Notes: a model not told the origin generated them from the sequence alone. A stretch of 64,000 nt of DNA from Nitrospirae bacterium GWC2_57_13 (GCA_001805055.1 MHDZ01000015.1:1263-65262); one strand, 5' to 3'. Positions 24,713 to 44,320 are shown, counted from the stretch's first letter. Made by a program: numbers and translations.

Positions 24713-25552
24713 TCAGCCTCCTTCGTGGTCCTGACGCGCCTTCGCGCGCGATACCGCTCCAAATCTCATCGCCCTTTCGGCGCAAACCTCTATGCACCGC
24801 CCGCAGTTCGTGCATTCACCGGATAGTACGGAGCCGTTATGCTTCCCCACCATGGGCAGGACCTGCGGCTCCGGACAATGCTTGAGGCATTCACCGCAGA
24901 GCGTGCAATGGTCCTTCAGATGACGCACGCGCAGAAACCCATAAGCGCCTGCCAGGGCATAGAACGCGCCGAGGGGACAGAGATGGCCGCAGAAACCCTG
25001 CCGCAGGACGACGAGGTCGAAAAGGAACAGGGCAAGCACCGCGGTCCAGCCCAGTCCCATGCCGAAGATGACCCCCCGGTGAAGCATCGAAATGGGGCTG
25101 ATCCATTCAAAGGCCGCGACGCCCAGGAGCGCCGAAAGCACAAGGCTCAGGCCCAGCACCCAGTAGCGCGCGTTTCGGCTGATCTGGAACCCGCTCAGAG
25201 CGGGGCTGCTGTGATCATCCCCAACAGCGCGCCGCAAACTGCCCGCGAGGTCGGTGACCATATTGACCGGGCAGACCCATCCGCAGAATACCCTTCCGCC
25301 GATGACAGCGAAGAGGACCAGCACAATGCCGCCGCCCAACATTGCCTCGACGGAGACCATAGTGCCTGTCGCGAAGATCTGGAGCAGCGCAAAGGGATCA
25401 GCAAGCGTCACAGCATCAAGCAGCCGGGAAGAACTGAGGTTGCCCCGCAGCACCTTCCATCCCAGCGCGTTGCCTGCGATAAAAAACAGCAGGATCGATA
25501 CCTGGACCAGCCTTCGAAGTACAAGATACCGGTTCGAGAAGAGCCATCCCAT
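24713..25552 (-). CDS. napH: Quinol dehydrogenase membrane subunit NapH
   Basis: Four TM helices. Two CxWxCP motifs (GRVFCGWVCP, GFCGHLCP). Two C-terminal ferredoxin CxxCxxCxxxCP motifs. SD AGGAGGGG. Confidence 0.85.
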   Translation of the reverse strand: MGWLFSNRYLVLRRLVQVSILLFFIAGNALGWKVLRGNLSSSRLLDAVTLADPFALLQIFATGTMVSVEAMLGGGIVLVLFAVIGGRVFCGWVCPVNMVTDLAGSLRRAVGDDHSSPALSGFQISRNARYWVLGLSLVLSALLGVAAFEWISPISMLHRGVIFGMGLGWTAVLALFLFDLVVLRQGFCGHLCPLGAFYALAGAYGFLRVRHLKDHCTLCGECLKHCPEPQVLPMVGKHNGSVLSGECTNCGRCIEVCAERAMRFGAVSRAKARQDHEGG

Positions 25553-25553
25553 G

Positions 25554-26339
25554 TCAGAACCCCTCCTGGTTCAGGTACTCGAGGGGGTCTTTTTTGCTCC
25601 TCGGCGTGGTCGTAGTCACGTCCCCTGCCGCATCCTCGATCCGCTTCTCATCGGCAGCGTCCCAGCCCCGCACATAGTGTTCCGACGGCTCGCCCAGCGC
25701 TAGCTCCCGGGGCAGGACAAAGATCGACGCCTTCCGCGTGACGCAGGCGTGTTCGCAGAGGCCGCATCCTGTGCAGTGTTCGCTGTGCACCACCGGCCCG
25801 AGGATCGCGTGCTTGCCGGTGCGGTCGTTCTTCAGATGCTCCACGGTGATGGCCCGGTCGATGACGGGACAGGCCCGGTAGCAAGCTTCGCACTGGATGC
25901 CCCAATAGGCGATGCAGGTCTCACGGTCGATTACGGCGAGGCCGATCCGCGCCAGGTTAATGTCCAGCCGCTGAATACCGGCATCGTCAGGGCCGCTCAC
26001 CAGAGCGGGGGCGAGGGCTCCCGTGGGGCATTCCGCAGCGCAGGGAATGTCCTGGCACATGCGGCAGGGGTCCTCGCGCATCAGAAAGTACGGCGTCCCC
26101 ACAGGTCTGCCGTCGCCCGGCTTTGCCATGATCAGGGCATCGTAAGGACAGGCTTCCGCGCAGAGACCGCACTTGGTGCATTTCGCAAGGAACCGCGCCT
26201 CCTCGACTGCCCCAGGCGGTCGAAGCACCGTGGGGTAAGCCTTCTTGCCGTCGATGAACCCGGCCCAGACCAGCCCGCCCACTGCTGCCGCACCTGCGCT
26301 GCGCGCCAGGCCAAGCAGGAACGATCTTCGTTCCGTCAA
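25554..26339 (-). CDS. napG: Periplasmic ferredoxin-type subunit NapG (Tat-exported, 4x[4Fe-4S])
   Basis: Twin-arginine signal (M)TERRSFLLGLARSAGAAAVGGLVWAG, then four CxxCxxCxxxCP clusters. The start is probably TTG at 26337-26339, with GTG at 26384 as an alternative. Track ORF 25554..26534 is extended through a GEG repeat and the 25-nt upstream element. Confidence 0.8.
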   Translation of the reverse strand: MTERRSFLLGLARSAGAAAVGGLVWAGFIDGKKAYPTVLRPPGAVEEARFLAKCTKCGLCAEACPYDALIMAKPGDGRPVGTPYFLMREDPCRMCQDIPCAAECPTGALAPALVSGPDDAGIQRLDINLARIGLAVIDRETCIAYWGIQCEACYRACPVIDRAITVEHLKNDRTGKHAILGPVVHSEHCTGCGLCEHACVTRKASIFVLPRELALGEPSEHYVRGWDAADEKRIEDAAGDVTTTTPRSKKDPLEYLNQEGF

Positions 26340-26437
26340 CGCCGGATTCCCGCCTTCGAGGGAATGACGCTTTTCATTCCGCACTCCGAACTCCGCACCA
26401 TGATGTCCCTCACCTTTGTCCTCTCCCGATGATGAAG

Positions 26438-26489
26438 CCCCCTCACCCTTTTTCCCTCTCCCCGAGGGGAGAGGGGCGGGGGTGAGGGG
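26438..26489. repeat. GEG-family palindromic repeat copy
   Basis: ccctcaccc...ccctctcccc-gag-gggagaggggcgggggtgagggg nested inverted repeats in the napA-napG intergenic region. Confidence 0.5.
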
Positions 26490-26506
26490 TTGTCCGCATT
26501 CCGTAT

Positions 26507-29275
26507 TTACGCCTTGTACAATTTCACCGCGCACTTCTTGAAGTCCGTCTCCTTCGAGATCGGACAGGTCGCGTCGAGCGTCACCTTGTTGATGAAGACC
26601 TTTTCGTCGAAAAAGGGCACGAAGAGCATGCCCCGGGGCGGAAGGTTCCTGCCGCGCGTCTCGACCCGCGCCTTCACCTTGCCCCTCCGTGACTCGATCC
26701 AGATAAGTTCGCCGTCCTTCATCTTGTTCTGCGACGCATCCCCGGGATGCATGAAGCAGACGGCTTCAGGCACGGCGCGAAAGAGCTCCGGAACCCGCAT
26801 GGTCATGGTGCCCGTGTGCCAGTGCTCCAGCACCCGTCCGGTGCTGAGCCAGAAGGGATATGCGGCGCTCGGCAGTTCCGGCGGATCGATGTAATGCCGA
26901 AGGAAGATCTTGGCCTTGTTCGGCAGCTTCACCTTGTCCCCTTCCTTCGGCCCCTTGAGGTCTCCCGCGGGGATCTCCTTCATGGCTTCGCCGTAAAAGG
27001 CGAACTTCCCGTGGTTCGCCGCCTTCGCGTAGGGATCGTACTCGGCGTTGAACCGCCAGGACGTTTCCTTGCCGTTGACAACAGGCCACTTGAGCCCGCG
27101 AACTTTGTGGTAGGTGTCGAAGTCCGCAAGGTCATGGGCCTTGCCGAGACCGAACTTACGGTATTCCTCCCAGAGAGACTTCTGGATGAAAAACCCGTAT
27201 CCCTTGAAACCTTCGACATTCCGACCGTCTCCCGCAGCTTCGGAGTTGAGGAACCCCTTGCCCACGGGGTCGGGCCACTTGTATCCTTTCGCCTCCTTGC
27301 CGGCGAAAAGCACGTCGAAGAGCGTGTCCGTCTCCTTGTACCCCATCTCTTTCGCTTTGGCCAGCACATCGGGCAGGACGGTCTTGTCGTCGATCTTCCA
27401 TTCCTTCCATACCTCTTTCAAGGTGAAGCGCTTCGCGAACTCCAGGGTCTGCCACGTATCGGACATGGCGTTCCCGACAGGCGTCACCTGCTGCCGCCAG
27501 TGCTGGGTCCTGCGCTCGGCATTGCCGTAGGCGCCCCACTTCTCGAAGATCATCGCTGCCGGCAGGATCAGGTCAGCCACCTTGGCAGAGATGCTCGGAT
27601 AGGCGTCGGAGACCACGATGAAGTTGTCCATCTCGCGCGCAGCCGTGATCCAGTGCCCGGCATTCGCGGAATTCTGCCAGGGATTGTTCACCTGGACCCA
27701 GACCCACTTGATCTTGCCGTCCTCGAGGTCCCGGAAGATCTGCATATAATGGGAACCCGCCACGGGATTGATCGTGCCCGCGGGAACGTTCCATATCTTC
27801 TCGCTCACCTCGCGGTGCTTGGGGTTCATCACGACCATGTCGGCCGGGAGGCGGTGCGCAAAGGTGCCCACCTCGCGCGCCGTGCCGCAGGCGCTCGGCT
27901 GGCCCGTGAGGCTGAAGGCGCCGTTGCCGGGCTGGGACTGCTTGCCCAGGAGAAGATGTATGGCGTAGATCTGCTCGTTCACCCAGGTGCCGCGCACGTG
28001 CTGGTTGAAGCCCATGGTCCAGAAACTCACGACCTTGCGGTCCTTCTCGGCATACAGATCGGCCAGGGCCTGGAGCTTCTTCTTGAAGTTCTCCAGGGAC
28101 TCGTCGGCGTCGCCCTTCGCCAGCGGCGCCGTGAAATCGAGCGTGTAGGGCTCGAGGCCTTTCTTGAAGTCCTCGAAGCTGATCGCCCAGTGGCTGCCCG
28201 CCTTTCCCGCGTTCTTCATCTCCATGCGATCGCCTTCCTTGTAGCCAAGGGACCCCATGGCAGTGGCCTCGTCCTTCGTAAGCACCTTGAACGCCTCTGT
28301 GGCCGCAGTATCCAGCTCGGCCTTCAGGTATTTCGGATGGTCGACTGCTGTCCGGAGACCGTATCCGATGTCCACGGGCCCCGTTGCGAAGATGCAGTTC
28401 TGGTCCACGAACTCCCGGTCCATCACGCCGGAACGGGTGGCCATTTCGCGGAGCAGATAGTTCTGGATAGCCAGGTCGGCGTTGGGCTTGATAACGATCT
28501 CGATATCGGCAAGGTTCGAACAGCGATTGGTAAAGGTCGTGACGTTCACGATCTTCACACGCTTGGGGTCGGAGAGCTTACGGTTCGTGATCTTGGACCA
28601 GAGCACCGGGTGCATCTCGGCCATGTTCGCTCCCCAGAGCACTACCGTGTCGGTATGGTGCATATCATCGTAGTTGCCTGCCGGCTCGTCGATGCCGAAG
28701 ACCTGCATGAAGCCCGCCACGGCGCTCGCCATGCAGTGGCGCGCGTTGGGGTCGATATTGTTGCTCCGGAAGCCGGCCTTCGTGAGCTTTACCGCCGCGT
28801 AGCCTTCCATGATGGTGTACTGGCCCGAGCCGAACACGGCAACGCCCCTGGGGCCTAGATCAGAGTAGTGTTTCTTGAACTGCTTCGCCATCTCGTCGAA
28901 GGCCTTTTTCCACGAGACAGGCCTGAACTTCCCCTTCTTATCGAATTGGCCCTTGGCGTTCACGCGCATGAGCGGCTCGGTCAGCCGGTCGGCGCCGTAG
29001 ATGATCTTGGCGTTAAAGTAGCCCTTGATGCAGTTCAGGCCCATGTTCACCGGCGCGATCGGGTCGCCTTTGACGGCCACGATGCGGTCCCCCTTGACAG
29101 CGATCATGATGCCGCAGCCGGTGCCGCAGAAACGGCAGACCGACTTGTCCCACCGCCACCCCGCCTCGGTCTGCTTTGCCGCGGCAAGGAGCTCTTCGGA
29201 CACGGCCAGGCCTGCGGCCGTCGCCGCAGCCACGGCAGCGGCTGTTTTGATGAATTCACGCCTTGAGAGTGACAT
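26507..29275 (-). CDS. napA: Periplasmic nitrate reductase catalytic subunit NapA (molybdopterin, Tat-exported)
   Basis: Twin-arginine signal [27 protein letters not shown]-terminal [4Fe-4S] motif CRFCGTGC. 922-aa molybdopterin oxidoreductase. SD AGGAGG with a 5-nt spacer. Confidence 0.95.
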
Positions 29276-29531: not shown

Positions 29532-30545
29532 TTATTGCACCGGTTTTATGTTCACATTGGTGCTCACGAGCTTCCACCCGGCGCCCTCATCGATGAAGGA
29601 CAGCTCGAACAAGACCCTCGAAGGGCGTGTGGGATAGTGTCCTTTGAGTGAAAGTACGCCTTCTTTCGAAAGGGAAGGCTTCTCATCAAAGACGGGCGTT
29701 AATTTTTCAACGACGGGCACCAGGTTGACATTGTTGTCCATGAAGGCCTTGAAGGCACTGTTAAAATACTCCACCGTGGCCTCGTTCTTCCACAGCAGGG
29801 AAACATGGCCGTGGAACTCGGTAAAATCGCTGGCATTCACGGAACGTGAAAAGCGCAGGAGGTTGTTCTTGACAAGAGCGGCCAGTTCATCCTTCCCTGG
29901 CACGCGGCCCGCCGCTTTCGCCCTCCTGGCCTGCGCAGCCGAAGTATATTTTATGATGCTCCGCGTGATCTGCTCGTGGGCCTTTCTCACATGCTCCAGC
30001 CCCGCCTTGTTCGAGCCGCCCACCACGATGATGCTCATGCCTGCCGTGAAGGGGATCTCGGTCTGGATGACCGATGTGGCCAGTGTTGGCACTTCATACT
30101 CGTAGGCAACGTACGTGATGCCCTGAAGTTCCGCGATGCCGCAGCTCTTCATCTTCACGGGGCCGCCAAAGAGCCTTGCAGCCTCGTCAGGCAGGGAAGC
30201 ACACGCATCCTGTGCGGCCTTCGCCGTGGGCTGCTGACCGCCCTCCATGAGCTGCACGCTGATGTTATTATTGAAATCCTTCGTGGAGTATTTCCGGTCG
30301 AAATAGAACTCCACCTTGCCCGTCTTGACCCGTTCGAGCACGGCCTTCATGTTCTCCTGATCGCCGTACTCCAGGCCCAGGCTCTTGAGCGTCTCTGTCC
30401 CGAACTTCCCGGCCGCCTCTTTTGAGGTCAACACAAGCCAGTCCTTCGACAGCTCAAAGGGGAACCCAAAGGTGCTTTGATATTCCGCAGCCGGCCCGGG
30501 AGCAGGCATGACCAAGAGCAGAAGGGTAAGAACGTATTTCCTCAT
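29532..30545 (-). CDS. Hypothetical periplasmic protein
   Basis: Start MRKYVLTLLLLVMPAPGPAAE is a signal peptide. SD GGAGG. 337 aa with no recognisable domain. ORF 29532..30626 trimmed. Confidence 0.6.
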   Translation of the reverse strand: MRKYVLTLLLLVMPAPGPAAEYQSTFGFPFELSKDWLVLTSKEAAGKFGTETLKSLGLEYGDQENMKAVLERVKTGKVEFYFDRKYSTKDFNNNISVQLMEGGQQPTAKAAQDACASLPDEAARLFGGPVKMKSCGIAELQGITYVAYEYEVPTLATSVIQTEIPFTAGMSIIVVGGSNKAGLEHVRKAHEQITRSIIKYTSAAQARRAKAAGRVPGKDELAALVKNNLLRFSRSVNASDFTEFHGHVSLLWKNEATVEYFNSAFKAFMDNNVNLVPVVEKLTPVFDEKPSLSKEGVLSLKGHYPTRPSRVLFELSFIDEGAGWKLVSTNVNIKPVQ

Positions 30546-30715
30546 GAGGCCTCCGATGGGGCTGCTAAACGATGAAGCGTACGGCCAAAACACGGGGCTG
30601 CTGGTCATGACGGCGCCGGCAACCACGTCTTCCCTTTAGCGAATAATGCCATTATCCTTCAGAAGTGATGTACAGTCAAGGCACTATTCACCACGCTGCC
30701 GTCTTTCTGCCATAA

Positions 30716-31453
30716 TCAGGATGAATATCCACGAGCCCTTTTTATTGTCTTCAGTCCATAGGGACACACAGCAGAGCAGATCCCGCAGACGCGCCCCTGC
30801 TGATACTGCAGGTAATGCTCTTTTTTCCATTGGTCGCACGCTTCGGGGTCCAGCATCTCTTCACGCTCCAGTCCCGGCGACCATGCACTCCCCTTCAGTG
30901 CCCCGGCAGGACAGGCTTCGACACAGATCATGCAGGTCCCACAGAACGCGCGCTCCAATGGAGGACCGCAAGGCAGATCCATGTCAATGAACACGGTCCC
31001 GAGACGGACCCAGGGGCCGAAGGATCGCGTGATGAGCTGACAGTGCCGCCCGATCCATCCCAGCCCCGCGCGGGTGGCCGCGGTCTTGTGCGGGAAGTCA
31101 CCTCTGAGATTGATCTGATCGGTCCGCACCGATGCTGCCAAAGCCAGTGATCGATGTCCGCGCTTCCTGATCTCCGCTGCCAGTAATGACGACACCTCAT
31201 TGATGCGTTCGTTCATCCGGGCATAGGCATTTCCATAGTCTTCAGTGGGTCCTGACCGGATATCGGCCATGATGTGCGGGTCCATGGGGAAGACCATCGA
31301 TACGGCGAAGGGGAACCCTTTTCCTGATTTGTCCACGGGCGTTGCGAACTTCCGCAGGTCTGCGGCGCCCCAGAGGGGGACGCTCTGCGCCGTCATCCAA
31401 GAGGAAAGCCAGGAAGGAAATAAAGTCTTGTTTTCGGTTGTCATAGAATGCAT
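30716..31453 (-). CDS. QueG-like 4Fe-4S protein (epoxyqueuosine-reductase family, short form)
   Basis: RAGLGWIGRHCQLITRSFGPWVRLGTVFIDMDL resembles the QueG core. Two ferredoxin motifs, CGTCMICVEACP and CGICSAVCP. Start uncertain: ATG 31453 chosen over 31483, which lacks an SD. Confidence 0.5.
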   Translation of the reverse strand: MHSMTTENKTLFPSWLSSWMTAQSVPLWGAADLRKFATPVDKSGKGFPFAVSMVFPMDPHIMADIRSGPTEDYGNAYARMNERINEVSSLLAAEIRKRGHRSLALAASVRTDQINLRGDFPHKTAATRAGLGWIGRHCQLITRSFGPWVRLGTVFIDMDLPCGPPLERAFCGTCMICVEACPAGALKGSAWSPGLEREEMLDPEACDQWKKEHYLQYQQGRVCGICSAVCPYGLKTIKRARGYSS

Positions 31454-31605
31454 AGTTGTCACAACTCCACCCTGCAAGTACATCCAGTCAGCTTTTCTCT
31501 ACTGTAGCAAATTGTGCCGGCTGCTGCAAAAGAATTTGTCAAGCCCTTCGTGCAATGAATTCCCGTTGCAATCGTTGACTTGGCATTATATAATCTTTCT
31601 GTTCC

Positions 31606-31640
31606 GAAAAAGGACAATAATAACTTTTGCCACAGAGAAC
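31606..31640 (+). promoter_or_regulatory. Candidate sigma70 promoter (TTGCAA-17 bp-TATAAT) for the PurH-like gene
   Basis: ccgTTGCAAtcgttgacttggcattaTATAATc lies about 115 bp upstream of the ATG at 31752. A structured leader follows. Confidence 0.35.
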
Positions 31641-31751
31641 ACAGAGATCACCGAGGAAGGCAAGATTTTGTCGTTTATTTATTAGGCCACGCGCTCCTCT
31701 GTGTCCTCGGAGACCTCTGTGGCATAACGCATTTTCAATCAGGAGGCTTCC

Positions 31752-33044
31752 ATGTCCGATATCAAGAAGATGTACAAGACCATCATGTCCGACAATTTCC
31801 CGCCCGAGATGACCATCACCTTCGGCGACCAGAAGCTTGTTTATAAAAAGCAGGCCTGGAAGCTGCCGGATGAAGGCACCGGCGAGGTGATCGAGAAGGG
31901 CCTTCGGTACGGCGAGAACCCGGACCAGCAGGCGGCCATGTACCAGCTCGCAGGCGGCAATCTGGAGCTTGCGGGTGTTAAGTTCATCAACCCCGGGTAC
32001 GGGCTCGTAACAAGTATCACAGAAGAGCAGATGCTCCAGGCAGGCAAACACCCGGGCAAGACGAACTTCACGGACCTGGACAATGCCCTGAACATCCTGA
32101 AATACCTGATGGACCGCCCTGCGGCAGCAATCATGAAGCACAACAACCCCTGCGGCGTGGCTTACGGCAGGACCATTGCCGAGGCCTATGACCGGGCGAA
32201 CATGGCGGACCGCATTGCCGCTTTCGGCGGATGCCTGGCCGTGAACCGGCCCATCGACAAGGAAACAGCAGAGATGGCGAATGCCAACTACCTGGAGGTC
32301 GTTGCCGCTCCGGACTACGAGGCAGGCGCCGTGGACATCTTGAAGAAGCGGAAGAACCTTAGAATCATCAAGCTCGAAAAGATCGCGGAACTGGCGAAAT
32401 ACCGCGACATGAGCTTCGTGGAGTTCAAGGCCCTGATCGACGGCGGCATCATCGTCCAGCAGTCGCAGAAGAACAAGATCAGAACAGCAAAGGATTTCCT
32501 GCCTGCAAAGACAACATACAAAGGCAAAGAATACGCCGTCGAGCGGCAGCCCACGGACAAGGAACTGGATGATATGCTTTTCGGCTGGAGCGTGGAACAG
32601 GGCATCACGTCCAACTCGGTGATCTACGTGAAGGACGGCACGACCGTTGGCATCGGTACGGGCGAACAGGATCGCGTCGGCGTGGCCGAGATCGCCATCT
32701 ATAAGGCCTATACCAAGCATGCCGACAGACTGTGTTTCAAGAAGCACGGCATCCCCTACAAGCAGTTCGAGCTGGAGGCGTCGCAAGGCAAGCGGGACAA
32801 GGCGGCGCTCAAAGAGATCGACAACCAGACAAAGAGGGACAAGGGCGGACTGATCGGCTCCGTCATGGTTTCTGACGCTTTCTTCCCCTTCCGCGACGGC
32901 GTGGATGTGGGAATAAAGGAAGGCATCTCGGCCATCGTGCAGCCTGGCGGGTCGGACCGGGACTTCGACATCATCACGGCCTGCAACGAGTCGAGCCCCA
33001 AGGTCACGATGGTCTTCACAGGCCAGCGGGTATTCAAACACTAA
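31752..33044 (+). CDS. PurH-like AICAR transformylase-domain protein (AICARFT/IMPCHase bienzyme family, formyltransferase domain only, no MGS-like cyclohydrolase domain)
   Basis: Signature KHNNPCGVA, also GGCLAVN, GIGTGEQDRV and the C-terminal SDAFFPFRDG...QPGGSDRD. SD AGGAGG with a 5-nt spacer. Confidence 0.8.
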   Translation: MSDIKKMYKTIMSDNFPPEMTITFGDQKLVYKKQAWKLPDEGTGEVIEKGLRYGENPDQQAAMYQLAGGNLELAGVKFINPGYGLVTSITEEQMLQAGKHPGKTNFTDLDNALNILKYLMDRPAAAIMKHNNPCGVAYGRTIAEAYDRANMADRIAAFGGCLAVNRPIDKETAEMANANYLEVVAAPDYEAGAVDILKKRKNLRIIKLEKIAELAKYRDMSFVEFKALIDGGIIVQQSQKNKIRTAKDFLPAKTTYKGKEYAVERQPTDKELDDMLFGWSVEQGITSNSVIYVKDGTTVGIGTGEQDRVGVAEIAIYKAYTKHADRLCFKKHGIPYKQFELEASQGKRDKAALKEIDNQTKRDKGGLIGSVMVSDAFFPFRDGVDVGIKEGISAIVQPGGSDRDFDIITACNESSPKVTMVFTGQRVFKH

Positions 33045-33114
33045 AGCATTGAACCGCAATGGACGCATCGGTTTACCTTTGTACCCTGATCGTCTTCGCG
33101 GTTCATCCTTTGAG

Positions 33115-34164
33115 TCACTTCAGCTTTTCCATATCAACCCTGTCAAACACCCGTGGAAACATCTTTTTCGCGCAGTCGGGGCACATGCCGTGAGTGAACT
33201 TCACGTCCGAGTGCCTGCTGATGTAGGTCTCCACCTGGTTCCAGTACCCCGAATCGTCCCGGATCTTCTTGCAACCCGCGCAGATGGGCAGCAGCCCGGC
33301 CAGGACCTTCACCCGGTCGATGTATTCCCGTAGCATGTCCCGCTCCTCGCGCAGCGCTTCCTCGCTCAGCTTCAGCTTCCGGAACAGGATATTGTAAGGC
33401 TTCACGACTCCCGTGTGGATGATGGCGCGGTATACGAAGTAGAAGGCCGCGATCTTGAACAAATGCCCGAACATGTTCGAAAGGCCGTAGAGGCTGATAT
33501 AAAAGGTAAAGAGCAGTTCCGAAGCAATGGTCAGGACGATGGAAACCATCAATAATTTGAGCACCGAAGGATCGAAGTCCGCACGCTTCCGGTAGAGATA
33601 GGCAAGAGACCCGGCCAGGAGCGCAGAGATGATGTATTCGCAGGTTTTCTTGAATCCCGTAAGGCCCTCTCCCTCAACGAAGCACGCGGGGAACAGGTCC
33701 CAGGCGAAGATGGAGGCCATGGCAACCGTTGTGAGGATCGCGTAGGCCGCGAACATGATCCCGGTCCTGAGGCGGCGCTTCACGAAGGCTGGAGCGATCA
33801 GGAGGGATACAGCCTGGAGCGCCCGCGCCGTGATCCAGAGCTGCGTCGGCAAATTGGCATCATAGCCGGGGAATACGCCCATGCCGGTGTAGGACAGGGT
33901 ATGCACCACGTCGATGACCCCGACGAAGAAATAGGCAATGCCGAGAAAAACAAGGTAGCTGCTATCCAGGAAGTCGCGGGCATTCCAAATGAGCATGAAA
34001 ATGCCGAAGGCGACAACAGCACTGAAGATCTCGGCGATGGAATGGAAGAGCAGAAAACTATAAAGACTTGTGAGATACAGGAGGCCTAGCCCGACGAGGC
34101 AGCTGCCCGGAAAAAGGATCCTCCGCGGAACTTCGCTCTCTTTCACGACTGGTTCATTCGTCAA
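33115..34164 (-). CDS. Polytopic membrane sensor-like protein (MASE3-like 6-7 TM region) ending in a Cys/His-rich C-terminal module
   Basis: TTG start with SD AAAGGGG. Multiple TM helices. C-terminal LPICAGCKKIRDDSGYWNQVETYISRHSDVKFTHGMCPDCAKKMFP is shared with the 36297..36746 protein. Confidence 0.65.
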   Translation of the reverse strand: MTNEPVVKESEVPRRILFPGSCLVGLGLLYLTSLYSFLLFHSIAEIFSAVVAFGIFMLIWNARDFLDSSYLVFLGIAYFFVGVIDVVHTLSYTGMGVFPGYDANLPTQLWITARALQAVSLLIAPAFVKRRLRTGIMFAAYAILTTVAMASIFAWDLFPACFVEGEGLTGFKKTCEYIISALLAGSLAYLYRKRADFDPSVLKLLMVSIVLTIASELLFTFYISLYGLSNMFGHLFKIAAFYFVYRAIIHTGVVKPYNILFRKLKLSEEALREERDMLREYIDRVKVLAGLLPICAGCKKIRDDSGYWNQVETYISRHSDVKFTHGMCPDCAKKMFPRVFDRVDMEKLK

Positions 34165-34224
34165 TCACTGCCCCTTTCCGTAACGCGGCCCTTGGCCGCA
34201 ATTGAAAACTGAAAATTGGAAATA

Positions 34225-34241
34225 TCAAATTGCAAATTTGA
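34225..34241. promoter_or_regulatory. Perfect palindrome TCAAATT-GCA-AATTTGA, 60-75 bp upstream of the membrane-sensor gene
   Basis: Lies in an AT-rich tract (gaaaactgaaaattggaaata...) and is a candidate operator. Confidence 0.3.
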
Positions 34242-34391
34242 TGCATTGCCGTAGGCCATTCCGTTCGCGTTATATACTTTTGCTCGCGCGTCAAATCTTA
34301 AAAAGAAATAGTATGCCGCGCAGACGATGCGGCTCGAACAATGGGAAACGCATAAGCCTTGCAGCTTCGTGCCCTTCGTGAACTTCGGAAA

Positions 34392-34430
34392 CAGGGACAG
34401 TCCCCCTGGAACCAAAGGGGACTGTCCCTT
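34392..34430. repeat. Palindromic hairpin repeat GGGACAGTCCCC-N11-GGGGACTGTCCC
   Basis: Perfect 12-bp stem immediately downstream of the stop of the 34435..36066 gene. A near-identical copy lies at 51292-51330 downstream of another gene. Confidence 0.5.
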
Positions 34431-34434
34431 GTCG

Positions 34435-36066
34435 TCAATACTCCGGCATCAGCAGTTGGTTCTCCCGGGACCGGCTCTCGCCCAGGCTCATGACATAGAT
34501 CGCCGGCCTGCCGAGCACAGGACACTTGGTCTCGCAGATGCCGCAGCCGATGCAGAGCTCCAGGTCCACGTGGGGCTGCATGACCGCCACGGTCCGTCCT
34601 TCCCGGTCCTTCACCTTCACATCCTCGAACCAGATCGCCTTCTTCGGCGTGGGGCAGACCTCTTCGCAAACGATGCAGGGCCTGCTGTGGGCCCAGGGCA
34701 GGCAGCGCCCTTTGTCGATCATGGCGAGCCCGATTTTGACCTTCGCCTTTTCCTCGAGCGTCAGGCGTTTGATCGCTCCCGTGGGACAGACCTGTCCGCA
34801 GAGCGTGCAGCGGTATTCGCAGTAGCCGATGCGCGGCACCAGCACGGGCGACCAGATGCCTTCCAGCCCCGCCTCCATGAATGTGGGCTGCAGCCCGTTC
34901 GTGATGCAGACCTTCATGCACTCCCCGCACTTCACGCAGCGCTTCAGAAACTCCTTCTCCTCAAGCGACCCTGGCGGGCGGATCAGTGCCGGGTTCTTTG
35001 AATTGGCCTGGGCCAGCGGCGTGACCCGCAGGAGAGGCACCGCCACGACGCCCGCGACCGCTGCTGCTATCACCCGCCGCCTGCCCAGATCAAGAGGCGA
35101 CGCGGGCCGGGGTTTACCGAAGCCGAACCGGACGGCATTCTCCGGGCAGATGTCGTCGCAGTTCCAGCACATGAGGCACTCGGAGATGCGCCAGTGCTCC
35201 TTCGAGTCGGGCTGCGCATTTCCCTGGCAGACCGAAGCGCAGGCCCCGCAGGATGTGCATCCCTCGCTCACCGACCGGCTCAGCACGGCGCGGCGCGAAA
35301 GGACGCCCAGCAGCGCGCCAAGAGGACAGAGATGCTTGCACCAGAACCGCTTCTCAAGCAGACTCAGGCCGAGGATGACCAGAAAGAGCAGGCCGATGAA
35401 CACGCCCTGGACGTAGAAGGACTGACCAAAGGACAGCACTGTGCTCTTCAGAACATCATAGACCGGTTCGGTCAACAGGGCGATGCCCAAGGGGTTCACA
35501 GCGTAGACAACATCGAAATAGGCGCGGACCGCGTAATTGAAGAGCGGATAGACGCTTACGGAAAAGGAACGGATCAGGAGCGACAACGGGTCCATGACGC
35601 CCACGAACTGGAGGGTAAAGACCGACGAGACGAGAAGGAAGACCAGGATGAAATACTTCCAGCGATACCACTTCACGGGCATGGACTCGGGCTTGCGCTT
35701 CCGGAGCGAACCCACCATATTGTTCAGCGTGCCCAGAGGACAGACCCAGCCGCAGAAGACCCTGCCGAACAGCACCGTGGCCACGACGGTGATGAGCGAC
35801 AGGAGGAAAGCCACGGGCAGGGCATGAGCCGCGAGCATGGTGCTGATGGAAATGAGAGGGTCGAAGTCCAGGAAAAGCCGCACAGGATATCCAAGCTCAT
35901 CGTTCCCCTTCGACTCGGTCTGAATGAAGAGGAAGAGGAACAGGAGAAGGAAGAGGCCCTGGGTTATTCTGCGGATATTTTGTGTGGTAAGCAGTTTCTG
36001 CAAATCCTGTCTCACTGTGAGTAGGTGTTTGTGAATTCGATCCGGAACAGCCAGGCACCAATACAT
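34435..36066 (-). CDS. NapH-NapG-like fusion polyferredoxin (membrane quinol-dehydrogenase-type iron-sulfur protein)
   Basis: N-terminal NapH-like part with TM helices, two CxWxCP motifs (GRVFCGWVCP, RFWCKHLCP) and two ferredoxin motifs. An internal Tat-like hydrophobic segment (LGRRRVIAAAVAGVVAV) follows. The C-terminal NapG-like part has four CxxCxxCxxxCP clusters. Start ATG 36066 (MYWCLAV) has no SD and is uncertain. The track ORF N-terminus is read-through. Confidence 0.7.
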   Translation of the reverse strand: MYWCLAVPDRIHKHLLTVRQDLQKLLTTQNIRRITQGLFLLLFLFLFIQTESKGNDELGYPVRLFLDFDPLISISTMLAAHALPVAFLLSLITVVATVLFGRVFCGWVCPLGTLNNMVGSLRKRKPESMPVKWYRWKYFILVFLLVSSVFTLQFVGVMDPLSLLIRSFSVSVYPLFNYAVRAYFDVVYAVNPLGIALLTEPVYDVLKSTVLSFGQSFYVQGVFIGLLFLVILGLSLLEKRFWCKHLCPLGALLGVLSRRAVLSRSVSEGCTSCGACASVCQGNAQPDSKEHWRISECLMCWNCDDICPENAVRFGFGKPRPASPLDLGRRRVIAAAVAGVVAVPLLRVTPLAQANSKNPALIRPPGSLEEKEFLKRCVKCGECMKVCITNGLQPTFMEAGLEGIWSPVLVPRIGYCEYRCTLCGQVCPTGAIKRLTLEEKAKVKIGLAMIDKGRCLPWAHSRPCIVCEEVCPTPKKAIWFEDVKVKDREGRTVAVMQPHVDLELCIGCGICETKCPVLGRPAIYVMSLGESRSRENQLLMPEY

Positions 36067-36296
36067 ATCAAAGCATACCCAATGAGTCGTGCAAGAAAGG
36101 GCTGCACGTAAATACTTCTCGCTGACCCGCCTATGAACTATATTCGCGCCCGGTAGTTTCTGGCATGGAAAGCAGCCACCTGCTTCGGATAACGAACATG
36201 AATGCTTCCAACGCCGATAATAATTGCTAAAAACACTAGAATCTCTATCCTCATGGATTCGTCCTTCAGAGCGCATCGAGCGCCCTGTTCCATCGC

Positions 36297-36746
36297 CTAC
36301 TCTTTCCGGAATTTCTCCATCATCGCTTCAGCGCATTCAGGACAGAGCCCATGAGTGAACGAAGCCTTGGAATGCTCCGATACATACCGTTCGACCGGAT
36401 ACCATTTATCGTCCCGCCCTCGTATCTTCTTACAGCTTGCGCAGATAGGGAGCAAGCCCCTGAGCCGGATGATCTCATTTGCCGCGTTCTCCAGACGATG
36501 AACATAGAGGAACACCAGGAAGAACAGCAATGCCGTCAAAAATCCGCTCACCCCGCCCACGATCAGGTGCTCTTCGTGAAAGTACGGGATATCGGGATGG
36601 ACCTTAAGATCGATAAGGGCGTTCAGGTTGGCCATGAGCAGGACCACGAAAAATGCAAACAACGCCCGCACCACAACTCTCCTGGGAGAATGCCCGGCAC
36701 GATCCTTCGTGTCCCTTCGCTGAACGATCTTTTCTTTGCTTTTCAT
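36297..36746 (-). CDS. Small membrane protein (2 TM) with the same Cys/His-rich C-terminal module
   Basis: Start MKSKEK at 36746, alternatively 36827 just 10 nt after the DUF362 stop. TM helices VVVRALFAFFVVLLMANL and GFLTALLFFLVFLYV. C-terminal LLPICASCKKIRGRDDKWYPVERYVSEHSKASFTHGLCPECAEAMMEKF. Confidence 0.6.
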   Translation of the reverse strand: MKSKEKIVQRRDTKDRAGHSPRRVVVRALFAFFVVLLMANLNALIDLKVHPDIPYFHEEHLIVGGVSGFLTALLFFLVFLYVHRLENAANEIIRLRGLLPICASCKKIRGRDDKWYPVERYVSEHSKASFTHGLCPECAEAMMEKFRKE

Positions 36747-36837
36747 CCCTGTCCACTGATTCCCCAGTATCGAGCCATGAGCATCTTCATCCGCTTCATT
36801 CCGCACTCCGAACTCCGCATTCCACATTCGGGCGCGT

Positions 36838-37734
36838 CTACACCTTCATTTTTCTGATATTCAACTTCGCCAGGTCCATCACCCCGAACCCCGTCTCGGC
36901 CCCGATCCGCACGTACCCCAGGTCGCTTCCCTTCATGCCGAAGAGCGTTGCGCCGTAGGAGTCGATGGCTACCTGGTCTGTGCCGGCGATCACCGTATCG
37001 AGCCTCTTCACGTCGTCCAGGTCCCCGCCCTGGGGCCCGTTGTCCGTCAGGATCCGCACGGCGTCCAGGACCGTCAGCTTCGGCCTGATCGCCCTGGCCA
37101 GGTCCACAATGCTCTCGTCGAGTTTCTGATGGATCATCCTGCGCGAACCGCCCATGACGCCCATCCAGTTTTTCATGGACATGGTGAGCTTTGCAAGGCC
37201 GTGATGCTTCGCTATGGGCACATTGATCACCGTGTCCGCCTCAATCACTTCGGTATAGAGCGGCCAGGTCTTGAGCGCGATCCCCTTGATCTCCATATCC
37301 TTGAACTTCCGGTCATCCATGAAAATCACATCGGCGCCCTTGTCGCGGGCCGCCTCGGCGATGCCGCTCTGCACATAGCAGCGCCGCGGATCGTTCACCG
37401 GCCGGTCGAAGACCTTCACCTTCTTCGCCCCTGCCTCGATGCAGAGCCGGACCACTTCAGCCACCACCTCGGGATTCGTGTCTCCCGCCTGCTCAGGCAC
37501 GCGGTCCCAGGCGATATTTGGTTTCACGACCACGATGTCGCCGCGGGAAACGAACTTCTTCATCCCGCCCAAGGCCTCGATGGCCGCGCGCGTAATGGCG
37601 GCCGCTGACGGCCCCTGCACCACGGCAAGGTCAGGGCCTGCCTGCGCCGCCTCGGCTGCCTGCTTCAGGCCGCCGGGGAACGAAAGGCCTATGCCGGCCA
37701 GCGCTGCCGATCTCAAGAACTTTCTCCGGTCCAT
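36838..37734 (-). CDS. Tat-exported DUF362-domain protein
   Basis: Twin-arginine signal MDRRKFLRSAALAGIGLSF. DUF362 motifs VKPNIAWDRVPEQAGDTNPEVV and NVPIAKHHGLAKLTMSMKNWMG. SD GGGAGGTG. Confidence 0.75.
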   Translation of the reverse strand: MDRRKFLRSAALAGIGLSFPGGLKQAAEAAQAGPDLAVVQGPSAAAITRAAIEALGGMKKFVSRGDIVVVKPNIAWDRVPEQAGDTNPEVVAEVVRLCIEAGAKKVKVFDRPVNDPRRCYVQSGIAEAARDKGADVIFMDDRKFKDMEIKGIALKTWPLYTEVIEADTVINVPIAKHHGLAKLTMSMKNWMGVMGGSRRMIHQKLDESIVDLARAIRPKLTVLDAVRILTDNGPQGGDLDDVKRLDTVIAGTDQVAIDSYGATLFGMKGSDLGYVRIGAETGFGVMDLAKLNIRKMKV

Positions 37735-38159
37735 GGAACACCTCCCGGTAGGGATCGTTTATGATCGCATTCCAGTAATAACGCGGCCAGACGGCAGCAA
37801 CGACAATCAGCCGCTAAGACGCAAAAAAAAGATCGATGTATTCTTGTGTTGCCCAGGCTTCATGAAGACAGTTTCAAAATGATGCAAATCCCAATGCGGA
37901 GGGAATAGATTCAGCTTGGAATGATTTAAATCAACTATATATGCAGATCAGCATACTGTCAAGTCGTGAACCCGGCCGCGCCACAGATGGATCAGCCCGA
38001 CATCATGCTGCCGGCTATGAACAAATTGCCGGAAGGCATCCGCTTTTTAGGCTATAATGAAACTATTCACTCTTGCTATTTCCAAAACATCCCATACAAC
38101 AAAAGTTGCATCAAGGTTACGCATGTTCCCATCCAGCTCTCAGAAAAGGAGGTCGCGCT

Positions 38160-38444
38160 ATGCCGCACTACGTTATCATGAGCAACCTGACGGACGAAGG
38201 AAGGAAGACGATCAAGGAGAAGCCGGAACGGATCCAGGAGGTGAACAAGGAGATCGAAAAGATGGGCATCAAGGTGCTGTACCAATATGCGCTCCTCGGC
38301 GCCTACGACTTCATGAGCGTTATCGATGCGCCGAGCAACGAGGCGGTCATGAAAATGTCCGTGGACCTGGGCTCCCGCGGTTCGGTCCAGATGATGAGCC
38401 TTCCGGCTCTGGCAGTCGAGGATTTCATAAAGAAGATCAAATAA
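38160..38444 (+). CDS. GYD-domain protein
   Basis: MPHYVIMSNLTDEGRKTIKEKPERIQEV...YALLGAYDFMSVIDAPSNEAVMK is the GYD family signature. SD AAAGGAGG with a 7-nt spacer. ORF 38073..38444 trimmed. Confidence 0.7.
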   Translation: MPHYVIMSNLTDEGRKTIKEKPERIQEVNKEIEKMGIKVLYQYALLGAYDFMSVIDAPSNEAVMKMSVDLGSRGSVQMMSLPALAVEDFIKKIK

Positions 38445-41146: not shown

Positions 41147-44100
41147 TCATGCTTCCTGCGAGCCCCGCCCTTTGTCCAGCGCTGCCCGGACCGCTCCCAG
41201 CAGGTCGGAGAGGGAAACGGGCTTCATGATAACGGCCGGGGATGCATCGTCAAGACCCTGGCGCTGGATGATGTCCGCAGTGTAACCGCTCAGGAACAGC
41301 GCCCTGATGCCGGGACGCGCACTTGCGATCTCCCGGAGCACGTCCCGGCCGTTCTTTTTCGGCATGATCACGTCCAGCAGAAGCAGATCTATCCGCTCCG
41401 CATTCTCATGAAAGAGGCGGACCGCCTCCTCACCATCCCCGGCAGCGAGGACCCTGTAGCCGTACTTTCCCAGAACGTCCACAATAAGTTCTCGGACCGC
41501 CGGATCGTCCTCGGCCACGAGCACGGTCTCGGCCCCCCCGCGCAGCGGCTGCACATTGGTCACAACTGCCTCCCCCTTCGCGGCGGGAACGACGGGGAGA
41601 TGGACGCGGAATGTCGTCCCTGATCCCGGTATGCTCGACACCTCGATGAACCCGTCATGCTGAGCCACGATACCGTACACGATGGCAAGGCCCAATCCCG
41701 TACCGCGGCCCACCTCCTTGGTGGTGAAGAAGGGCTCGAAAATCCTGGACCGCACCTTTTCATCCATACCGGCCCCCGTGTCGGATAGGGCGACCAGAAC
41801 GAAGTCACTTGCCTGTTCCGGCACTCCGGAAGCCGCGCTGCCGCTTTTCCAGTGCACCAGCGAAGTCTCGATGGTCAGGGCGCCGCCATTCGGCATGGCG
41901 TCGCGGGCGTTGGTCGCGAGGTTCATGAGCACCTGCTGGATCTGACCGGAGTCCGCCATTACGGTCGGGTCATCAGGAGTCAGGACGGTGCGGAATTCGA
42001 TGTCCTCACCGATCAGGCGGCGAAGCAGCTTCTCCACGTCCCGGACCACGGCATTCACCTGCACCGGCTTCGGATTGATGATCTGCTTCCGGCTGAAGGC
42101 CAGCAGCCCGTGCGTAAGGTTCGCGGCGCGCTCGGCCGCGGCGAGGATGTTCTCCACGTTCATCCTGAGAGGATCGTCCTCGCTCATCTGCATCGTGGCC
42201 AGGTTCCCGTAGCCCACGATTGCCGTCAGGATGTTGTTGAAATCATGGGCCACGCCGCCGGCAAGCTGGCCAACGGCCTCCATTTTCTGGGCCTGGAGCA
42301 GCAGCTGCTCCAGTTTTTTGAGCTGGGTCACGTCGCGCATGGTGCCCCGGAACATCGAAATTCCACCCGCCTCGTCATGCTCCACCGTCGCCGTGATAAG
42401 AACGGTCACCGGTTCACCGTCCTTCTTTTTCATGACGACCTCGAAATCCTTCACATACCCCTTCTGTCCGTAATTGTCGATCAATCGCCTCCGGTCTTCG
42501 GCGTTCAGATAGAGGTCTTCCGGGATATCCATCTTCAGCATCTCGTCTTTTGAAGCGTAGCCGAAAAGCTCGATGCCTGCGGGATTGATGTCCAGGAACC
42601 TGCCTTCCCGGGAGCTGATGAACACCACGTCTTTTGACTGCTCAAAGAGGGTCCGGTACTTCTCCTCCGACTCCCGGATGGTGCGGTTTGCGCTTTCGAT
42701 CTCCTGGAATTTGCCGCTCAGGGCCTCGGCCATTGCCCGGAAATTCTTGATCAGGGAGTCGATCTCCAGCACCGGACTTTCGGGGAGGTCGACGCGCTCC
42801 CGGCCCGAGACCCGGGACGGAAGGTTGCTGGTCACAGCGGCAAGCCTTCGCAGAGGACCAACAAGCGCGCCGCTCAGCACCTGGGAGGCCGCCACGGCCA
42901 ACAGGATCAGCACCAGGATGAGCGTGAAGCTGCCGATCTGGCTCCGGTAGAGCCGTTCACGAAAGGGCGCGAGGGGAGACTCAACGACGACGGTCCAGGG
43001 AATGTCATCGGAGAACGGCAGCTCCCTGACAAAGTACGACTGTCTCCACTGTTCCATGGGGGGAAGCCCCGGTTCCGCAAGGGAGAAAAGAGAGACCTTC
43101 GTGCCCGGAGGACCAGGCCTCCTGGTCCTCCTTTGTTCAAAGGTCTGCAGCGGCTTGAGATCAGCGCGGGTACTGGCGATCACAGTGTTATTACGGTCCA
43201 GAAGCGTTGTCCTGACGAGCCATGGTTGATTAAAGGTCGCGAGACGGTCCCTGATGTGATCAAGGTTCACGGCGCCGAGGACATAGCCGCTGAATTTCCC
43301 TGCCTTCAGCATCGGAACACTTAATGTCACAATGGGAGAAAAGACGCCGCCCCGCCCCTCGAACACATCCGAGATAACCGGTCTGCCCGTTGTCTTCATT
43401 TCGCGGTAATAGGGGCGGTCGGAAAAATCGATGCCGATGGTGCTCTGTCCTTTTGCATTCACCGGCGGATGGAAGGCCACGGTCCTGGCCGAAGCCTCGG
43501 CTATATACATGTTATAGAAGTCGGGGAAGAGCCGTTTAGTGTTCTCAAGCGTTTCCTGGAGCCGCGCAGAGGGCTTCAGGGCTTCACGGGAGGCGGTGCG
43601 CGCAACTTCACTGACAGCGCGGAGCTGGTTTTTGAGCCAGAAGGCCAGTATCTCTTCGGTCTTTAATGCGACCGATTCCAGCTCCCGGACGCTGGTGGTC
43701 TCCATCTGCCTGAACTCACGCCGGCTGTCGGCGGCCGTGGTCATGAGCACCGGCACGATGGCCAGCAGCATCATGATATTGAAAAGGGTATGCCGCAGGG
43801 AACTGATCGGCCTGCCAGGAATGCCGCTCACCCACTGCACGAGCGGAGCGTGGCCGATAAGGAGGCTTGCCAGGACCGTGTTCAGGATCCCGTTCACGCT
43901 CTGCTTCAGCATGACCAGCAGCGTGGCCTGGGCGTCCATTTCCAGCGCCCCGAAATAGAAGAGCCATATCAGGGGCGTGCCTATGACCACCCAGTACGCG
44001 GCGTCCAGCAGCACAAGGTTGTTCCGGCCCCGACGCAGCATCGATCCGACAAAGAGCGCCTCTGCAGTCAGTATCAGGAGAGCGTAGGGATGGTTCCAGA

Positions 44101-44320
44101 GGATGAACGTATAGCTGCCCGCGATGACCGCAACAATGACTCCGGGAACAGCCCCGAAAAGACGGAGTACCAGCATCACGGCAATGCTGCCGAGGATGAA
44201 GTCCACGCCGAAAAAAAGGGGGATGCTGAGGTAGTTCCCTGCAAGCCCCGCGAGTGCGAGGACGCCGAGGGCCGCTGCTGCGCGCGGCGTGAATCCTCTA
44301 TATGACACGGGTGGTCTCAT
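41147..44320 (-). CDS. Hybrid sensor histidine kinase / response regulator (membrane N-terminal domain, periplasmic Cache-like domain, PAS, HisKA, HATPase_c, REC)
   Basis: PAS ([24 protein letters not shown]). H-box [12 protein letters not shown]1 and G2 boxes (DTGAGMD, GTGLGL). C-terminal REC ([12 protein letters not shown]...LLLLDVIMP). Confidence 0.9.

Follow-up and report, generated by a model that had tools for sequence, protein, structure and literature searches.

Four neighbouring genes in Nitrospirae bacterium GWC2_57_13: a DUF362–polyferredoxin pair and two membrane proteins sharing a Cys-rich C-terminal module

The four genes and the DUF362–polyferredoxin pair

We analysed a group of four consecutive minus-strand genes, positions 33,115 to 37,734, within a 64,000-nucleotide stretch of DNA from Nitrospirae bacterium GWC2_57_13 (GCA_001805055.1 MHDZ01000015.1:1263-65262), hereafter the window, from whose first letter positions are counted. 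In their order on this strand, the genes encode a DUF362 protein with a twin-arginine translocation (Tat) signal, a small protein with two transmembrane (TM) helices (protein B), a polyferredoxin (PFD), and a MASE3 membrane sensor (protein D). B and D end in the same Cys-rich module, referred to below as the tail. All four open reading frames (ORFs) were confirmed, and the set is flanked by plus-strand genes, PurH-like (31752-33044) on one side and encoding a GYD-domain protein (~38073-38444) on the other. A sequence-only reading of the window had proposed that the four genes form one redox unit, with the tails of B and D sensing its state.

The DUF362 protein (298 residues; 36838..37734, minus strand) matched PF04015 with an E-value of 1e-53, scoring 182.8 bits against a gathering cut-off of 24 and covering model positions 1-199 of 200. 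As the sequence-only reading had noticed, it carries a Tat motif: the protein begins MDRRKFL, and the twin-arginine motif DRRKFL occupies residues 2-7 (37714..37731, minus strand). A motif of this type, RRxF[LI], was present in 73 of the 74 DUF362 orthologues, and both of its arginines (R6 and R7 in the numbering of the trimmed alignment) were at least 97% conserved. The same threshold was reached in this subfamily of 74 orthologues by KPN, WDR, TNP, one Cys, RR.Y.QSG, K.WP, N.P.AK.H, and K-N-x-M-G … R … H-Q, a dense pattern suggestive, in the alignment, of an active or cofactor site. No relative of the protein was detectable by sequence in the PDB. In the literature, DUF362 was found in outgroup or incidental mentions only, and no characterised member was found.

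The PFD (34435..36066, minus strand) proved to be the NapH–NapG fusion with an internal twin-arginine segment that had been described from the sequence. Its N-terminal half matched the NapH model TIGR02163 (E = 1e-30; 107 bits, cut-off 213) and a second NapH model (91.6 bits, cut-off 234), and its C-terminal half, residues 328-528, matched the NapG model NF007012 (E = 1e-31; 110 bits, cut-off 269); both halves thus score far under the curated NCBIfam equivalog cut-offs. Two Fer4_5 matches were obtained with Pfam. Two CX3CP motifs were located, CGWVCP at 105 and CKHLCP at 243; the first has the CxWxCP form that had been assigned to both, and the second is CxHxCP. Four-Cys clusters were found at 270-280 and 297-307 in the NapH-like half, and at 377-387, 416-427, 455-471 and 505-515 in the NapG-like half. 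Hydrophobic segments span residues 70-112, 136-161, 213-242 and 330-352. The last of these, with the internal twin-arginine motif (RRR at 329-331, within GRRRVI at 328-333), makes up the fifth, Tat-type TM segment (35011..35082, minus strand), and R330 and R331 were invariant in 24 homologues.

More than 7,600 PFD homologues were found. The best 120 shared 70-79% identity with the window protein, in addition to one 100%-identical copy, and those of the 120 that are named by source belonged to Nitrospirota. Because homologues have 513-525 residues and their alignment to the window protein begins near residue 25, translation probably starts at GTG 36015 or TTG 36003, and not at ATG 36066. By its NapH-like half, its twin-arginine motif before the last TM segment and its NapG-like half, the PFD is a member of the already published dual Sec/Tat family of polytopic polyferredoxins. 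Insertion by Sec and Tat together was shown experimentally for a protein of delta proteobacterium MLMS-1 by Tooke et al. 2017 (eLife, PMC5449189), who explicitly called the polyferredoxin a NapH–NapG fusion and reported the family in Nitrospirae, Chloroflexi and Euryarchaeota.

The window also contains a true napA–napG–napH operon (24713-29275, minus strand), 5 kb from the PFD gene and consistent with the nap operon described in related Nitrospirae (PMC5812927). Its three products score above their equivalog cut-offs: NapA (26507..29275, minus strand) with 1376 bits against 904, NapG (25554..26534, minus strand) with 325.7 against 269, and NapH (24713..25552, minus strand) with 352.5 against 234. 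Since this operon is present, the PFD is a paralogous system with another partner. A role as Nap quinol dehydrogenase was considered for the PFD and ruled out, given its scores under the cut-offs, the unfused napAGH genes of the same window, and a partner that is DUF362 and not NapA.

Conservation of the locus was studied in 80 species loci around PFD homologues, drawn from Nitrospirota, Syntrophales/Smithella and Acidobacteriota, whose six-frame ORFs were searched with the window proteins and a hidden Markov model (HMM) of the tail. A DUF362 gene lay straight upstream of the PFD gene, on the same strand, in 74 of these loci, a co-occurrence that the sequence-only reading had suggested checking. 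In 69 of 73 loci nothing separated the two ORFs, which abutted with a median of 4 nt at their boundary; the inserts between them in four loci were unrelated. The pair was also present in L021, a locus labelled Thermodesulfovibrio yellowstonii. The next most frequent gene family around the PFD gene was seen in at most 16 of the 80. From these gene orders, the conserved unit consists of DUF362 and PFD, as a two-gene membrane cassette with a putative redox role that is found across three phyla. This near-obligate pairing is a first contextual handle on DUF362. It also bears on what the dual Sec/Tat polyferredoxin does in the cell, a protein hitherto studied for membrane insertion alone.

A tail module was found near the PFD gene in only two of the 80 loci, one being the closest relative (L002) and the other lying at the edge of a contig (L056). 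Locus L002, about 88% identical to the window at the DNA level, has kept PFD, D and purH, with an unrelated gene of 476 residues (124-1551) upstream of PFD; DUF362 and B are absent there, and the PFD–D intergenic region carries an insertion of about 345 nt. Together, the gene replacement and the insertion point to a recent rearrangement exactly at the cassette. Conversely, neither DUF362 nor PFD was found near the tail in any of 80 unrelated metagenome loci picked via the tail. Synteny thus gave no conserved DUF362–B–PFD–D module, and the proposal of a single redox unit read by the tails failed on this point. Judged by gene order, the position of the two sensors beside the cassette is specific to this lineage. 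On the whole, the sequence-only reading is partly supported, its domain assignments being good with minor corrections and its grouping of the genes into one module failing; in this region, same-strand adjacency in one genome was no predictor of a functional module.

Proteins B and D and their common C-terminal module

Protein B (36297..36746, minus strand) had no match in Pfam or NCBIfam. An alternative ATG start at 36827 would give a protein of 176 residues; the 10-nt distance from the DUF362 stop to the next start that had been reported holds for this alternative, and not for the start at 36746. B consists of two hydrophobic helices with a conserved HPDIPYF(D/H)xEH loop, as seen in the family alignment, followed by a linker helix and the tail (LRGLLPICASCKKIR…FTHGLCPEC; 36324..36464, minus strand). 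Protein D (33115..34164, minus strand) consists of a MASE3 domain, a coiled linker and the tail (LAGLLPICAGCKKIRDD…FTHGMCPDC; 33151..33303, minus strand). Its residues 33-256 matched PF17159 (E = 1e-88; 297 bits, gathering cut-off 31), in agreement with its earlier description as MASE3-like. D starts with a TTG that follows GGAAAGGGG, and this start region is conserved in L002. Searches of Pfam and NCBIfam detected no PAS, HisKA or HATPase domain in D, which scored 221.7 bits against a cut-off of 560 with NF047874, the model of MASE3–PAS–histidine kinases, and aligned to positions 3-256 of its 655.

By BLASTP, the tails of B and D were identical at 29 of 51 residues (57%; E = 5e-20), which bears out the shared Cys/His module recognised in the sequence. 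BLASTP and the tail search placed one copy in each protein and none elsewhere in the 64-kb window. The consensus of about 45 residues reads LPICAxCKKIRDDxGxW…ExY…HS…F(S/T)HGxCPxC, with the cysteines arranged as CxxC-x29-CPxC. When a profile of 71 tails was compared with 1.84 billion representative proteins, it matched 25,047 representative clusters at E≤1e-3 and 20,693 at E≤1e-10. A homologue search with the tail by itself yielded only short proteins and fragments, which told nothing about partner domains.

Architectures were counted among the 150 best profile matches, single-copy and two-copy proteins being treated apart. The tail ended no more than 15 residues from the C-terminus in 104 of 109 single-copy proteins. 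Exactly 29 residues separated the Cys pairs in all 138 modules, with CPxC present in 126 and the histidine of H[GS]xC in 120. When 110 single-copy representatives were aligned, the invariant residues were P, C, C, D, G, W, H, C and C, and KKIR, Y, Q, E, Y and HS were at least 90% conserved. The segment ahead of the tail was a helical, coiled-coil-like linker.

The survey of partner domains and neighbours that had been suggested from the sequence showed a wide range of carriers. Single-copy proteins mostly carried PAS (85 of 110), and also GAF, REC, HAMP or HisKA_7TM; among two-copy proteins, MASE6 (20 of 40) and PocR were found. Small modules of 2-4 TM helices were common tail carriers. About 40 of the 150 best matches (P0190-P0229) were two-copy proteins in which the succession membrane module–helix–tail occurs twice, and P0190 corresponds to a tandem duplication of a unit of two TM helices and tail. 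The name 'cytochrome c553' given by JGI to another match, P0371, is wrong, as this is a small multi-TM protein with a tail.

The sequence-only reading had seen in the tail an output domain replacing a kinase or GGDEF domain, and the comparisons agree with this view. In P0444, a B-type 2-TM module with its linker (40% identity over 89 residues, E = 4e-22) runs into a GGDEF domain that begins at residue 84. L149 has a MASE3 domain joined to HisKA/HATPase, with a REC–tail gene 1.5 kb away, and the MASE3–tail architecture of D was found again in L133. REC–tail genes (L095, L097) follow histidine kinases of the GAF/PAS type, with stop and start overlapping or adjacent, and a histidine kinase was the sole recurrent neighbour of the tail, lying directly upstream in 19 of the 80 tail loci. 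The tail is therefore found where an output domain would be expected, C-terminal to sensor or receiver domains, interchangeable with other outputs on the same modules, and as the effector of response regulators beside histidine kinases. In these architectures it behaves as a signalling output domain.

The structure of the tail was predicted with AlphaFold2 (AF2). The model of the D tail had a mean predicted local distance difference test (pLDDT) value of 80.8, with a core at about 90. The topology was the same in D and B: a Cys knuckle, a β-hairpin, a short helix, and the CPxC at the N-terminus of the last helix, a predicted fold that appears treble-clef-like. In the model of B (mean pLDDT 73), the second TM segment forms one continuous helix, residues 58-98, leading into the tail. 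No model matched the tail in Pfam (E≤10) or NCBIfam, and no match was found in the PDB by sequence or fold, the best hit of the tail profile against PDB sequences having an E-value of 0.17. A resemblance between the hairpin, IRDDxGxWxxVExYxxxHS, and a segment of mammalian glutamate dehydrogenase, IRRDDGSWEVIEGYRAQHS (E about 0.17-0.4), is probably due to chance; it is consistent with the predicted β-hairpin conformation. A description of the tail was not found in the searchable open-access literature, and an earlier one may exist elsewhere.

The CxxC…CPxC tetrad with a gap of about 29 residues recalls rubredoxin, and the Cys spacing of Clostridium pasteurianum rubredoxin is 3/30/3. Homology to rubredoxin was rejected: profile comparison with hhalign gave a probability of 1.5%, and neither sequence or profile similarity nor a similar fold was found.

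True orthologues of B, with two TM helices, the HPDIPYFDxEH loop and the tail, were found in varied contexts: beside a PAS protein, with prmA on one side and rsmE on the other, and beside a peptidase gene and a lactamase-fold gene. The orthologue in L082 (5001-5486; 51% identical to B) stands in a [NiFe]-hydrogenase operon, preceded by the gene of the cytochrome b subunit and followed by the maturation genes hycI/hypA/hypF/hypC/hypD. Those at L092 1005-1361, L093 1463-1819 and L099 130-561 lie immediately upstream of a REC–HD-GYP gene, and in L093 the gene on the other side encodes a hybrid kinase, HisKA–HATPase–REC, which may have no sensor of its own. Because these orthologues adjoin a REC–HD-GYP gene and a kinase with no apparent sensor, a small B-type sensor may work with such a two-component pair.

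Intergenic signals and surrounding genes

The four genes are loosely packed, with about 230-280 nt between B and PFD and 270 nt between PFD and D. The best promoter-like site of the set, a sigma-70-like candidate TTGACA-17-TATAGT (37934..37962, minus strand; 11 of 12 consensus positions, a match to the consensus only), lies upstream of the DUF362 gene. A weaker site (36137..36166, minus strand; 9 of 12, likewise a consensus match only) lies between B and PFD. Directly 3' of the PFD stop, a GC-rich hairpin with a 13-bp stem and an 11-nt loop (34393..34429) resembles a terminator; it has no clear T-run, and the terminator scan made no call there. The AT-rich palindrome that had been reported upstream of D is present, 60-78 nt from the gene, as an 8+3+8 inverted repeat (ATCAAATT-GCA-AATTTGAT; 34224..34242). 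As many such repeats occurred in just 3% of shuffles, and this one is not conserved in L002, the closest relative. A sigma-54-like reading of the region upstream of D, made by eye, was rejected, its spacing being off by one.

Three further ORFs were observed around the set. A 509-residue ORF at 31539-33068 (minus strand) runs antisense to the PurH-like gene (plus strand, AICARFT_IMPCHas) and is almost certainly a shadow ORF of this GC-rich gene and no gene itself. A 364-residue ORF (29532-30626, minus strand), with the nap operon on one side and a QueG-like Fe-S gene (30716-31483) on the other, had no match in Pfam or NCBIfam. Finally, a hybrid sensor kinase of architecture dCache–HAMP–PAS–HisKA–HATPase–REC is encoded at 41147-44320 (minus strand), 3.4 kb upstream of the DUF362 gene, and no cognate regulator was identified for it.

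Interpretation and comparison with known systems

We consider it probable that the region holds two independent things side by side, namely a conserved DUF362–PFD redox cassette and two tail-bearing membrane sensors. In the cassette, a DUF362 protein exported by Tat would be accompanied by a NapH–NapG fusion polyferredoxin with five TM helices. By analogy with NapGH, the NapH-like half would lie in the membrane with its two Fe-S clusters on the cytoplasmic side, and the twin-arginine segment would act as the fifth TM helix, placing the four-cluster NapG-like half in the periplasm. The PFD would then most likely connect the menaquinone pool by electron transfer to the DUF362 protein in the periplasm, and the latter may serve as the catalytic partner for some substrate.

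As for B and D, each would lead from its last TM helix through a linker helix into a Cys4 module. The tail is probably a general signalling output domain, C-terminal and cytoplasmic, whose place on a given sensor module can be taken by GGDEF or by a histidine kinase, and that also forms the effector end of REC response regulators. Its output position is indicated by the REC–tail genes following kinases, by the GGDEF fusion in P0444, and by the MASE3–kinase fusion in L149 taken with the MASE3–tail protein in L133. It would bind one metal ion, probably Zn, through its four cysteines in the treble-clef-like knuckle–hairpin–helix. The many conserved residues that are not ligands suggest a specific and widely conserved cellular target, which could be a protein or a nucleic acid encoded elsewhere, or perhaps a small molecule, and whose binding would be controlled by the upstream helix.

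Several observations weigh against parts of this interpretation. The DUF362 protein has no obvious redox-cofactor motif. Protein B is wedged on the same strand between DUF362 and PFD, even though the pair abuts in 69 of 73 other species, and this placement could reflect a functional link peculiar to the lineage. The two tail genes also lie within 3.3 kb of each other, compared with a background of about 1-2 tail genes per Mb of PFD flanks, and the hydrogenase operon in which one B orthologue stands is another quinone-linked periplasmic redox system. Moreover, the conserved residues other than Cys (KKIRDD, G, W, E, Y, HS, H) are more than a Zn site of purely structural function would need. In this lineage, B or D and the cassette may be linked in their regulation; the insertion of B and the hydrogenase-operon orthologue favour such a link, and the comparison of genomes gives it no support.

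It now seems improbable that the four genes are a single quinol-linked unit of periplasmic electron transfer, with the Cys-rich tails of B and D reading its redox state. Such a unit would account for four adjacent same-strand genes bounded by plus-strand genes on both sides, for the location of B between DUF362 and PFD, for a B orthologue beside a cytochrome b gene inside a hydrogenase operon, and for a Cys4 spacing, 3/30/3, that is the same as in rubredoxin. Yet just two of 80 species have a tail near PFD, one being the 88%-identical L002, which retains PFD and D without DUF362 and B, and DUF362 and PFD are absent from all 80 tail loci; B orthologues adjoin such genes as PrmA/RsmE, a peptidase, a PAS protein, or a histidine kinase with REC–HD-GYP. 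The gaps of about 230-280 nt and 270 nt, the promoter-like site and the hairpin between the genes also speak against a single unit. With the same cysteines, the tail could form an Fe(Cys)4 centre like that of rubredoxin, or else a Zn-thiolate switch that is redox-labile, acting as a redox input or modulator and not as an effector that binds a partner. The exact rubredoxin spacing in 138 of 138 modules, the CPxC, which is the rubredoxin knuckle, and the mostly anaerobic hosts agree with such a centre, whereas the profile comparison, which gave no homology to rubredoxin, does not, and we regard it as unlikely.

The tail could also be a zinc finger that binds DNA or RNA, in which case REC–tail and PAS–tail proteins would be transcription factors, and B and D membrane-tethered regulators, possibly of their neighbours. 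Most response-regulator outputs bind DNA, and the invariant basic KKIR patch, the conserved W and Y, the dimerising helix ahead of the tail, the lack of a conserved partner gene nearby and the inverted repeat upstream of D would all suit this explanation. Against it, the basic patch is flanked by conserved acidic DD and E, the inverted repeat has no conserved counterpart in L002, and the tail model is unlike any solved nucleic-acid-binding finger. In addition, the tail is often carried by integral membrane proteins (2-4 TM modules, MASE3, MASE6, HisKA_7TM), which is unusual for DNA binders; this frequent membrane anchoring argues mildly against DNA binding by the tail. We therefore find this explanation rather unlikely, if somewhat less so than a redox centre, and retain a conserved DUF362–PFD cassette beside two independent tail-bearing sensors.

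A broader proposal can be put forward tentatively, as a possibility that we do not favour outright: that the tail represents a major undescribed class of bacterial output, acting unlike a kinase, cyclase, phosphodiesterase, HTH or methyl-accepting domain, and, separately, that the Tat-DUF362 protein and the PFD form a new quinol-linked periplasmic oxidoreductase of anaerobes. Such a class may number tens of thousands of sensors, whether one-component, two-component or minimal membrane ones, that act by metal- or redox-dependent binding to a universal target, and may span at least Nitrospirota, Desulfobacterota, Chloroflexota, Acidobacteriota and Calditrichota. If the tail is a true effector, a large proportion of the PAS, GAF and REC proteins of anaerobic and environmental bacteria that are now called output-less would gain an output, through a new signalling mechanism that is testable with a 45-residue construct. 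Two findings deserve following up, the pairing of DUF362 with PFD and the identification of the tail as a very abundant output domain that is uncatalogued, the PFD fusion itself being known.

Among known systems, NapGH of Escherichia coli and Wolinella succinogenes is made of the same two building blocks as the PFD, with presumably the same wiring from quinol to periplasmic Fe-S clusters; in the PFD, however, both halves are on one polypeptide, and the partner is DUF362 instead of NapA. The polyferredoxins of Tooke et al. 2017 share with the PFD a NapH-like half of four TM helices whose clusters are cytoplasmic, a twin-arginine motif straight before the fifth TM domain, and a four-cluster periplasmic NapG-like half. 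The difference lies in the near-obligate pairing with a Tat-DUF362 protein shown here, DUF362 being mentioned 0 times in PMC5449189. DUF362 itself belongs to the same Pfam clan, CL0471, as the LarA/DUF2088 lactate-racemase superfamily, where it has served as an outgroup (PMC11770544). Unlike that superfamily, the present subfamily is, as predicted from its motif, exported by Tat, and is paired with a polyferredoxin.

Protein D has the full MASE3 domain of the MASE3–PAS–histidine kinases, but its linker goes directly into the tail, without PAS, HisKA or HATPase, and its score stays below the cut-off of that family. The tail itself resembles rubredoxin and domains of the type found in PknG of Mycobacterium tuberculosis, which has a rubredoxin-like regulatory domain: the CxxC…CPxC tetrad has an identical spacing, and in both cases a small module, putatively metal-binding in the tail, is placed on signalling proteins. 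It differs from rubredoxin in showing no profile similarity past the CPxC knuckle and, in the AF2 models, in having its second Cys pair at a helix N-terminus with no rubredoxin-style second knuckle. Compared by description, HalOD2 (Galperin et al. 2018, PMC5847659) is also a small C-terminal domain with paired CXXC motifs that follows REC and is predicted to be a Zn finger. Its spacing, however, is of 20-25 residues and it is known from few halobacteria, whereas the tail combines a fixed spacing of 29 with a long conserved non-Cys signature, is bacterial, has clusters in the tens of thousands, and can stand after PAS, GAF and membrane modules as well.

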